Positions 2,576 through 10,195 of a stretch of DNA of 64,000 bases are shown one piece after another. The notes below the pieces were generated by a model. It was not told where the DNA came from, searched no databases, and worked only from the letters and a program-made list of their open reading frames with translations. How positions within the stretch are numbered: position 1 is the stretch's first letter; every line of letters starts with the position of its first letter. The position numbers and the translations under genes were made by a program. The DNA lies in assembly GCA_951406725.2 (NCBI GenBank), contig OX597826.1:20522001-20586000 (forward strand), given 5' to 3'. This stretch comes from Octopus vulgaris. Its lineage: Eukaryota.

Positions 2576-3750
2576 CGTATATGTGCATGTGTGTTTGTTT
2601 ACATATACACACACATACATACATACATACATATATCAAATGTTTATTTTTCTCCACCCCACAAACTGTTCCACACAAACCCCTGTTTTAGGACAGGAAG
2701 GAGATTGTCTCACAACACAATATTTTATTGGAGCTAATTTGATATTTGGTTCAAATTACCGGACAAAATACTTTCTTGAGAAATGGCACAAAGCCATTTT
2801 CTGTAAAGAGATAGTTATTTGATTCCTTAGACATTGAGAATATTTTGGTCAACAGAGTTAAAGTCATACTGGAGCAATATACTCAGAGTTGAATGTTGTT
2901 TAAATTCTGTGTTCTTTCAGTGTATATTCGGTGGTTCTAATTCTTTCCTCGTTCATCTGTCTAACATCGCCAATAAATGGCTAAACGAATTAGGGAAGAT
3001 GTCTCAGATTGTAACATTTTGGTTAATCAAGGGGACTGGAGAGACAGTAATCGAGGTACTATTTAAAAGGTACTTGTATGTGTGAATGTTTATATGTGTA
3101 TGTGTGAAGATATGTGAGTGTGTGAATCCATCGGTCAGTGAGTGATGTTATCGCAGAATGAGAATAATTAATATCAGTTTAAGGAACTTTACTGAATTCT
3201 CTTATCAATAGTCCTGCGAGGAATATCAAGCCATTCCCTTTTATCACCGCAAGACATTTTCTTCTCCCTTATAGACTACTCATACTCCCTAATGGCTGTT
3301 ATAGACCATCATCCCTAGTTTCGTTAGATCCCACTTATCATCATCGTCACAATTCAGTGACTAATCACTGTAAGCCCTCTTCCTATTTACCAAAGATTGG
3401 AACTCATTCCCTGATAAATTTCCAGAAGAACTGATCCCTCTTTTCCTGTTTACAATTGTTCTGTGTATACAGTTCAGTTTAATTTGCACACACAATGTTG
3501 GATAAAAAAAAAAGTGTGTGTACATTATAGCGTAGACTGTAGACAACAGTTGGCATTTGAGCAAATATTTTTGGTAAAATGAAATTTTTGATAGATTAGA
3601 TACAAAATCATTCCGCTTCACACGATCCAAATAATTCTAAGTTTTATCGAAAATATCCCGAATAATGTTTCTTTCAACCGAAATGTTGTTTCTACATCAT
3701 ATATATAAATATATATATATATGTATATATATATATGTACGTGTGTGTGT

Positions 3751-7150: not shown

Positions 7151-7441
7151 ATGACCGTTGACTCTCAAGAGTTCCTCCGCCCTTTGACGGGTTTTGTTTT
7201 TCATCCCGCAGGGTGTCCAATAAACACCCTCCTCACCAAGCAAGGTTGGTGGGGTAGCCGGTTTAGTCGCCGACGACTTGACCATGCAACAGGTTGTACT
7301 GGGTTACATGTTACCAGTAGCACTCGAAAGTAACCTGACATACTCGTTCGAGGTGTCGATGTTCACTGAGTCCTACAATTCGCATAACTTCACGCGGATA
7401 GCCGCGCTCTTCATCGACGGACGAGCCGAGTGATCCCGCCC
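7151..7441 (-). mobile_element. Partial duplicate of the 5.8S-headed RTE-type element (5' part only)
   Basis: Identical to 8688-8978 (offset 1537). Identity continues into the flanking (TACA)n, including its 'tactta' interruption. Confidence 0.85.
7345..7441 (-). pseudogene. 5.8S rRNA-derived fragment (copy 1)
   Basis: Minus strand GGATCACTCGGCTCGTCCGTCGATGAAGAGCGCGGCTATCCGCGTGAAGTTATGCGAATTGTAGGACTCAGTGAACATCGACACCTCGAACG matches the conserved metazoan 5.8S core. No ITS, 18S or 28S context. Confidence 0.85.
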
Positions 7442-7468
7442 AACATACATACATACATACATACATAC

Positions 7469-7638: not shown

Positions 7639-7700
<62 letters not shown>

Positions 7701-7703
<3 letters not shown>

Positions 7704-7811
7704 CGCAGGCGTAGCTGTGTGATAAATAGCTTGCTTGCCAACCACATGGTTCCGGGCTCTGTTTCACTGCGTGGCACCTTGGGTAAGAGTATTCTACTAT
7801 AGAAGCCTGTC

Positions 7812-7899
<88 letters not shown>

Positions 7900-8125
7900 A
7901 CATATGTTTGTGTGCCTGTGTTTGGCCCTCAACATCGCTTGATAACCGGTGCAGGTGTGTTTATGTCTCCGTAACTTAGCGTTTCGGAAAGGGACCAATA
8001 GAATAAGTTCTGGGCTTACAAGGAATAAGTTCTGGGGTCGATTTGTTCGACTAAAGGCGGTGCTCCAGCATGGCCGCAGTCAATTAATTGAAACAAATAA
8101 AAGAATAAGAGAATAGAATAAAAGA
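7701..8125 (+). mobile_element. Family-B SINE (tRNA head, CORE-like 'gcgtggcaccttgggtaag', internal microsatellite)
   Basis: Head 'ggcgcaggcgtagctgtgtg...ggttccggg', tail 'ggcggtgctccagcatggccgcagtc...gaaacaaataaaaga'; many copies in the window. Confidence 0.8.
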
Positions 8126-8320
8126 ATATATATATATATATATATATATACGCGTAAATAAATATATACGGACATATAAATGTATATGTATATATATATA
8201 TATGTATGTGTATATATACATACATGCACACACACACACGCATATATATATACATACATACATACATACATACATACATACATACATACATACATACATA
8301 CATACATACATACATACATA

Positions 8321-8980
8321 CCTGGTGGCTGCCCCCTCGTTATCGAGTATGGCCATTGCACGAAGCTTAATCAATGTTGTTATCGTGCAATGCCTGTGCA
8401 AGAAGATTCTTTTTAAAGTGAGGAAAGGCTGAGCACTGAGTCAATCCCACTCACTAAGCAACAGCAGCCATAATCCGAAAAGAAGAACAAGTCAACATCA
8501 TCGGTAACCACTGAGCCACAGGTTTTATGTCGGAGTTATCCCAGTTACCTGAGTTACCTTCTCCTAGAAGGATGCCCTAACAAAGGCTAGGAGTCCTTCA
8601 CTCCCAATGGTTTAACCGCGCGATCGGGTATTCAGTCCGATTATTTCTATGTCCCCGCGCATGATACAGCCATAAGACATTTATTGGATGACCGTTGACT
8701 CTCAAGAGTTCCTCCGCCCTTTGACGGGTTTTGTTTTTCATCCCGCAGGGTGTCCAATAAACACCCTCCTCACCAAGCAAGGTTGGTGGGGTAGCCGGTT
8801 TAGTCGCCGACGACTTGACCATGCAACAGGTTGTACTGGGTTACATGTTACCAGTAGCACTCGAAAGTAACCTGACATACTCGTTCGAGGTGTCGATGTT
8901 CACTGAGTCCTACAATTCGCATAACTTCACGCGGATAGCCGCGCTCTTCATCGACGGACGAGCCGAGTGATCCCGCCCAA
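8321..8980 (-). mobile_element. Non-autonomous bipartite RTE-type element with a 5.8S rRNA-derived head
   Basis: Order on -: 5.8S fragment, structured segment, RTE-5'UTR-like motif 'ctaggagaaggtaactc...aaacc', short 3' end 'ctcgataacgagggggcagccaccagg', then (TATG)n. No ORF. Confidence 0.65.
8882..8978 (-). pseudogene. 5.8S rRNA-derived fragment (copy 2)
   Basis: Same sequence as 7345-7441. Has the conserved 5.8S motifs GGATCACTCGGCTCG, CGATGAAGA.CGC, GAATTG.AGGA and CATCGA; 3' part of 5.8S is missing. Confidence 0.85.
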
Positions 8981-9005
8981 CATACATACATACATACATA
9001 CATAC

Positions 9006-9077
<72 letters not shown>

Positions 9078-9139
9078 TATGTATACATACATACATACAT
9101 ACATACATACATACATACATACATACATACATACATACA

Positions 9140-9173
<34 letters not shown>

Positions 9174-10195
9174 CATCCACACATGCATACATACATGCAT
9201 ATATAAATATATATATTTCAGAAATAAAATATTGAGAAACCTCAGCATTGTTTATTTGGTATGATATCAGCCTCTATCGCAACACAGTTCGTTGTTTGAA
9301 GGGTATAAGCGCCGCTCTATACCCCAGTATATTCGTGATTAATCGATACTAATTCTGTCATTCAAACAGAAAACTTTTGATTGAAGCTCATTAGTTTTTT
9401 TTTTAGTCAAAACAATATAATGATATAAATACGATGATTAAAAATTGTAGTTATGATTGAAAAAAACAGACAATACAAACCAATTGCCGATATTGTTCGG
9501 CAATTTTGCTCTTTTTGTCTATTTACTTGATAGATTTTTCATCTTCAGCCATTCGTTGTCGTCTTATATGTTTGTTTTTTGATAAAAGGAATCTGTTATT
9601 TTCTTTTTTCAAATGCCATGATCGCTTTTCTTCCAGTTGGCCTCTCAATTTGCCTCCGTAGTAGAAACATTTCAACAATCTTCATCAAGCCATCTTTTTC
9701 GTCGCCTAAGGGTGGAGAGATTCTAGTACAGGCCTGCCTCACTAGCCATGCGTAGTCAATGTAAATTGGAAAAGTGCGCTGGATATCATTCACTCATGAC
9801 AGAATTAAAACATGACTGTAAATGACTATTCCTTGAGGCTGACGGAAAGTTTAATGAATTATAAGAGAGACAAAAATATACAAATAATAAGAAAAGAAAG
9901 GAAACTGCTGCTGAATTGTGGGAAAAGTCCATTGGAGCTGATCAAGGAGCGAGATAAAACAACAACACAAAAAGAACAAGCGAATATTTATATATATTCT
10001 ACTTGATTTGGGGTGTAGTTCAGGAAAATAGAAATAAAAATCTTACTGAGAAGGGGGGAGGTCGGCGTTGTTGGAAAGACATTGTTTTAGCAAAAAAGAA
10101 AGTTGTATATCTTTATGACAATGAGGTAGATATCAAGTCTATGTATTTCACTATGGTTACATACAGAAATTTAGGTGCACACACGCGCACGCACG

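Follow-up and report, generated by a model that had tools for sequence, protein, structure and literature searches.

A 5.8S rRNA piece fused to a bipartite, putatively RTE-type element in Octopus vulgaris: a probable single insertion among dozens of separate 5.8S-element fusions

A window of 64,000 nucleotides on contig OX597826.1 of the Octopus vulgaris assembly GCA_951406725.2 (positions 20,522,001 to 20,586,000), the whole stretch of DNA analysed here, contains a piece of 5.8S rRNA that sits directly ahead of a retroposon body. The question raised by this arrangement is whether 5.8S rRNA has become the head of a SINE family, or whether a reverse transcriptase (RT) jumped once from the RNA of an element onto a cellular RNA; a preliminary description of the locus had offered both readings. 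The features on which the following argument depends are, in coordinates of the window:

8882..8979, minus strand: 5.8S rRNA retrocopy, nt 7-106 of the host 5.8S (Rfam, 74.1 bits)
8881..8881, minus strand: linker of one base (A), differing from 5.8S nt 107 and from the element start
8323-8880, minus strand: element body, 558 nt, adjoining the 5.8S piece via the one-base linker
8371..8880, minus strand: 5' part of the non-autonomous element, corresponding to the 5'UTR of a putative RTE-type LINE (matches in loci L289 and L288)
8521..8590, minus strand: conserved RTE 5'-UTR motif, matched by eye to the RTE5' segments in the supplement of PMC5786205
8323..8370, minus strand: 3' part of the element, corresponding to the terminal 48 nt of that LINE family (98% to L288, L289 and L281)
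8212..8321, minus strand: (TATG)n tail or target microsatellite on the 3' side (TRF), present in other copies too
8981..9213, minus strand: (TATG)n target microsatellite on the 5' side (TRF)
7151..7443, minus strand: 3'-truncated duplicate of the chimera, comprising the 5.8S piece and the first 193 nt of the body

The minus-strand match of about 97 nt to 5.8S rRNA, from which the preliminary description had started, proved to be real. A scan of the window with Rfam recovers it at 8855-8984, minus strand, with an E-value of 1.6e-16 and a score above the gathering cut-off of 42; the numbering of the host 5.8S is counted from the Rfam-aligned start in the rDNA unit L038. A second match, at 7318-7447 on the minus strand, belongs to the duplicate copy, and these two are the only gathering-level Rfam matches in the window, in agreement with the earlier observation that no other rDNA lies nearby. 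The comparison with the host's own 5.8S that had been recommended gives 94 identical positions out of 100 against the unit of the array, with 4 substitutions and a 2-nt gap. In the genome searched (2.8 Gb in 227 contigs), the host rDNA forms a tandem array on C20 with a unit spacing of about 18.3-23 kb. The piece is devoid of ITS1, ITS2 and any other spacer sequence, and has the same orientation as the element, with the cellular RNA 5', the retroposon 3' and no spacer DNA between them. The miRNA matches returned by Rfam scans of the same type were rejected as microsatellite noise far below the cut-off, and the result of a repeat finder run over the whole window was likewise swamped by microsatellites.

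The body has no long reading frame and belongs to a young, high-copy family. The search for it returned 1111 candidates genome-wide, the best 40 of which were scored and are 96-97% identical; divergence from the majority of these 40 copies has a median of 2.3% and amounts to 1.8% in the window copy. Copies begin in a microsatellite, many are 5'-truncated and share their 3' end, and a variant longer by about 90 nt is also present. As a family it has no head, and its target is (TATG)n; all of the 39 best matches outside the window start at query positions 101-104, past the 5.8S part. TRF confirmed the (TATG)n that had been seen at the 3' end of the element and placed it on both sides of the chimera.

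Both ends of this body recur in long elements that encode APE and RT, as the proposal of a bipartite RTE body and the suggested search for its partner had anticipated. In L289, body positions 1-509 are matched at 90% (509 nt) and 511-555 at 98%, the two parts lying about 4.9 kb apart; in L288, positions 185-512 are matched at 95% (328 nt) and 511-558 at 98%, about 3.6 kb apart; and L281 matches the 3' end at 98%. The 5' matches of L288 and L289 sit upstream of APE+RT frames, with Exo_endo_phos and RVT_1 domains recognizable in L288 and RVT_1 in L281, and the reading frames are interrupted in these three long copies. The partner was reached only via an endonuclease query, and was absent among the 30 top RVT_1 loci, 20 extended RT loci and 30 loci of the longer body variant; an Atlas look-up of its domains returned generic names only. 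The sequence comparisons thus show a bipartite non-autonomous body, composed of the 5'UTR and the 3' end of a putative RTE-type LINE. The assignment of the partner to RTE is a putative one, based on its layout of APE and RT in a single frame and on the RTE5' motif, the presence of which in the body had been noted before and agrees with our comparison by eye of positions 8521-8590 with segments of OegopSINE, AviRTE and RTE-3_BF (supplement of PMC5786205). In 8 supplementary files of PMC9115989 searched for the sequence of RTE-2_OV, the motif was not found.

Several other elements were encountered in these searches. A young LINE family with an intact APE+RT frame of 1123 aa (L271-L279, e.g. G000:C16:4913800-4921500) has its first ~197 nt in common with the body at 85-87% and nothing more, and ends in (ATT)n; this likeness suggests that 5' ends have been exchanged between RTE families. 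A relative of the body occurs twice in L223 (2120-2330 and 8390-8560, 6.3 kb apart), with 75-88% identity over its first ~150 nt and a (TATG)n target, and diverges thereafter. L235, L236 and many further RT matches represent a very abundant LINE family, in which the many intact frames of 949 aa are a sign of recent activity. A ribozyme at the 5' end of the element was considered and rejected for want of support, the Rfam scan of three copies giving no match at E<=0.01 and the fold a z-score of -0.15.

With the two parts identified, the question of a family could be addressed through the junction. A 91-nt junction query is spanned only by the two window copies among the best 40 of 129 candidates. 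From the best-scoring of more than 1100 candidates, 79 separate copies with complete 5' ends, belonging to the body family or to related LINEs, served as a sample. In one of these, the window copy, 5.8S lies no more than 150 nt upstream; U6 and 5S are absent from this interval throughout, and 78 copies are headless, a form that is therefore far commoner than the chimera. A genome-wide census of 82 5.8S 5' segments likewise contains no other copy on this body. No 5.8S was thus encountered on this RTE element outside the window, and the option of a 5.8S-headed SINE family can be set aside on these grounds. Because 5.8S rRNA, which is cut from a Pol I precursor, brings no promoter, and because the body family spreads without a head, the chimera is likely to be an evolutionary dead end. 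The two parts diverge at 4 of 98 and 10 of 557 positions, respectively (p 0.14), which is compatible with one date. In four public runs the body is deeply covered (4/4) and depth drops at the junction; none of the listed contigs bridges it, and at the level of these contigs the runs are uninformative either way.

The two copies in the window count as one, as had been surmised from their appearance as a local duplication. The duplicate is 100% identical over 293 nt, which represent only the 5' 293 nt of the chimera, and the microsatellite upstream of both copies is exactly identical over 61 nt. Since it is 3'-truncated, the second copy is not a retrotransposition product; in our reading it stems from a recent duplication at the DNA level, or was duplicated in the assembly. 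Between the copies, at window 7700-8080, a SINE D head on the plus strand and a SINE D 3' part on the minus strand are parted by microsatellites.

The arrangement seen in the window is repeated, on other elements, at dozens of loci. The census pattern, a 30-nt stretch of 5.8S with <=3 mismatches, matched 82 places (control 0); all of these and 5 loci from other searches were examined. The 87 loci comprise 14 rDNA units or long fragments, 18 shorter fragments that contain spacer, and 55 pieces bounded by the mature RNA, or 54 dispersed pieces once the window duplicate is subtracted. Their starts cluster at nt 6-10 of 5.8S (39/54), a zone in which the window piece also starts, and their ends are spread over nt 38 to 162. 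At 43 of the 54, a SINE or a short SINE-tail unit begins, in sense orientation, no more than 75 nt away, as against 1 of the 18 shorter rDNA fragments with spacer; of 1000 positions drawn at random, 15 had such a neighbour. In 33 of the 43 the partner is SINE A. The remaining 11 include the window locus and a SINE C case that escaped the probe; several more involve fragments of SINEs or repeats of no assigned class, and two seem to stand alone. Solo 5.8S copies known from this genome are L093 and L296. All junctions are different, save one pair in the same 5-nt microhomology class, and microhomology is seen at several of them (L033, L076, L090, L127). The label 'tRNA-like' for SINEs A-D refers to A/B-box-like motifs recognized by eye; ARAGORN reported a tRNA in none of nine loci.

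Target-site duplications enclose the whole composite unit at many of these loci. A duplication score of at least 10 was reached by 20 of the 54 loci, as compared to 4 of 150 shuffled pairs, and inspection by eye placed the 3' copy of the duplication directly behind the SINE tail in 15 of the 20. The other five are the window locus, where the microsatellite makes the score uninformative, the solo copy L093, the unclassified L088, and L081 and L096, two loci at which the SINE head occurs both before and after 5.8S and insertion may have been into a SINE already present. Duplications were also seen by eye at L097, L098, L293, L295 and L303. Two of these surround three-part units: a full 5S, 5.8S and SINE A in L097 (581-699), and a full U6, 5.8S and SINE A in L098 (1841-1947). 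The window event is thus one of dozens of separate 5.8S-element fusions in this genome, not a new element family, and the one-off template jump proposed earlier, though supported, has to be placed within a recurrent class of 5.8S-SINE chimeras.

The possibility that the RNA itself begins at nt 7-8 was weighed and is disfavoured, since two copies (L079 and L088) reach back to nt 2, two others (L123 and L073) contain the initial bases twice, and loss of 5' bases is common among U6 copies as well. In both L123 and L073 a head-to-tail repeat of the initial ~10-20 bases of 5.8S stands upstream of the copy, as if RT had re-primed at the 5' end of the RNA. In L057, two intron-length tRNA-model matches (619-730 and 2932-3043) flank a multimer of 5.8S and SINE A, and this insertion sits in a tRNA gene repeat.

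For the window locus itself we consider it probable that a single chimeric copy arose in one insertion, in which RT finished the element RNA and jumped to the 3' end of a cut 5.8S RNA. The (TATG)n on the 5' side masks any target-site duplication, which is unreadable here because both flanks are microsatellite, and the reading as one event would follow by analogy with the sister loci. According to this scheme, a nick in (TATG)n would have allowed RT to prime on the 3' end of the element, to copy its RNA to the 5' end and to run off; an end-to-end jump onto 5.8S RNA cut at nt 106 would have followed, with one untemplated base; copying would have stopped at about nt 7, leaving out some 6 nt at the 5' end of 5.8S; and second-strand synthesis would have completed the insertion, with a later partial DNA-level duplication giving rise to the copy at 7151-7443.

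A single insertion could also have been prepared by ligation of the two RNAs, followed by reverse transcription of the product as one molecule, a route that U6/L1 chimeras reportedly take in human cells. Its trace in the DNA would be the same, and the one-base linker of the window is such as a clean ligation would give. However, in most 5.8S chimeras the tRNA-like SINE is joined at an intact start, and tails are present. RNAs begun by Pol III have a triphosphate at their start and tailed RNAs end in a 3'-OH, a combination that would probably suit the known ligase poorly; the microhomology at several junctions and the failure to find a ribozyme family at the 5' end of the element also speak against ligation, which we regard as unlikely. 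In a different course of events, the element would have been resident in the (TATG)n hot spot first, and a separate 5.8S retrocopy would have inserted at its 5' edge later. This order gains some plausibility from the solo copies of this genome, one of which lies in a microsatellite, and from the resemblance of the bases past the linker to one microsatellite unit. Yet the same bases begin the element outside TATG tracts too (L072, L204, L289), and hence no target repeat is left between the parts; moreover, exact abutment in sense orientation is the rule at the 43 loci described above. Two insertions therefore appear quite improbable.

The remaining two alternatives we hold to be very improbable. 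A SINE family headed by 5.8S and propagated in one piece might be thought of in view of the many SINE copies headed by 5.8S, and a small subfamily could be missed among the best-scored candidates; against it stand the restriction of the junction to the window, the census, and the variation in breakpoint and linker of the junctions on other SINEs. The abundance of the headless form, which PMC4494074, in the part available, uses to separate families from summed chimeras, here points to a chimeric retrocopy. An assembly artefact that joined rDNA reads to a repeat might be reflected in the identical partial duplicate 1.5 kb away, which could be a mis-assembly, but compared with the array the 5.8S piece differs by a gap and by four substitutions of its own, and target-site duplications are found across the class.

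The bases between the two parts vary in kind with the point at which 5.8S ends. Linkers were scored after removal of the last two bases belonging to the SINE itself. Upstream of solo SINE A heads nothing but AA is seen, in 33 cases that include one overlooked chimera. Where 5.8S ends at nt 144 or later, 15 linkers are T-rich and 2 A-rich; where it ends earlier, 13 are A-rich and 3 T-rich, 10 further linkers being left out as overlaps, ties or too short. The association has a Fisher p of 8.6e-5 with a cut-off picked post hoc, and alternative cut-offs of 130-150 give p from 9e-5 to 1.3e-3. Runs of at least 4 T occur only behind late ends, and runs of at least 4 A mostly behind early ones. A hold-out of 14 loci obtained with a different pattern, for which the prediction was recorded beforehand, includes 5 with SINE A; of its 4 scorable linkers, 3 fit and 1 does not (L300, end 154, A-rich). 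The one-base linker of the window adds little to the rule.

That their type depends on the end point of 5.8S speaks for an origin of the linkers in the 5.8S RNA, and not in RT or the SINE, and suggests that they are copied RNA tails. Alternatively, mixed linkers may in part be leader bases of the SINE, and slippage at internal A's may account for the A-runs. We give even chances to a wider proposal, namely that the genome keeps a fossil record of germ-line 5.8S 3'-end metabolism, written by ready jumps of LINE RTs from SINE RNA to 5.8S that made chimeras of most dispersed 5.8S copies, with oligo(U) on near-full-length molecules and oligo(A) on internally cut decay intermediates. Should the linkers be RNA tails, the uridylated and the adenylated ends of 5.8S could be predicted from genome sequence alone. 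Related processes are described in the available parts of PMC7826747 (uridylation of structured RNAs by TUT4/7, and a DIS3L2/ERI1 step in 5.8S maturation) and PMC6315592 (adenylation by PAPD5 and uridylation of 18S-E); these parts state no tails on 5.8S itself, and the corresponding part of PMC3849073 adds nothing.

Template-switch chimeras are already known as a class from U6. The accessible portion of PMC4476161 describes chimeras of U6 with L1, L2, RTE and SINEs (U6-L1, U6-L2, U6-RTEX-2, U6-Mon-1 and U6-AnolisSINE2), mentions triples and finds switching largely restricted to U6/U6atac in human; '5.8S' and 'rRNA' have 0 occurrences in the paper. The octopus chimeras resemble these in having a small RNA 5', a retroposon 3' and one duplication around both, in the involvement of RTE-clade LINEs and SINEs, and in the triples; they are unlike them in their passenger, an rRNA of Pol I origin whose 3' ends vary and whose linkers are rich in A or T. 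The human tailless retropseudogenes of PMC5322556, as far as its available text goes, are similar in being small-RNA copies near-complete at the 5' end and truncated at the 3' end, but they are solitary, tail-less products of L1. The human queries included 5.8S, and copies of nucleolar RNAs were reported as nearly absent, whereas 5.8S in this animal is a frequent passenger with linkers. This frequency of a Pol I-derived rRNA bears on where and how LINE complexes meet RNA.

The body with its 5'UTR and 3' end is comparable to the bipartite RTE elements treated in the available part of PMC5786205 (Bov-A/Bov-tA, RTESINE, WALLSI3 and the RTE5' part of Ceph-SINE), where a template switch is proposed to add the small-RNA head in the birth of a SINE. 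The window chimera corresponds to this very step, and the class shows the proposed first step, a small-RNA head on a bipartite RTE element, caught in the act; unlike the SINEs of that study, its head is without a Pol III promoter and did not spread. '5.8S' has 0 occurrences in the text or supplement of the same paper. SINE28 (PMC4994717) and SINEU (PMC4494074) also have heads taken from RNAs that lack an internal Pol III promoter, and in the parts available these are high-copy families with a shared structure, in contrast to the single-locus junction described here. In the literature searched, with most subscription papers outside its scope, there was no 5.8S-headed SINE, 5.8S chimera or octopus case. 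To the known chimera class we would add, as apparently new traits, the 5.8S passenger, the tail-like linkers and the serial jumps.

Other small RNAs of this genome have entered similar unions. A U6 pattern gave 363 matches, and of the first 30, 19 adjoin the head of a SINE or a tail unit, and 5 belong to a gene cluster. Ten of these 30 (L160, L169, L171, L177, L179 and L182-L186) are joined to a unit of ~50 nt that is also the 3' end of longer SINEs, exists in at least 4 sequence variants and shows differing junctions; it may be a mini-element transcribed on its own. The same tail unit is present on three 5.8S copies (L085, L091 and L128). In L003 (1050-1164), a 5S rRNA copy lies directly ahead of a SINE D head, beside a copy of the body, and 5S chimeras may be common.
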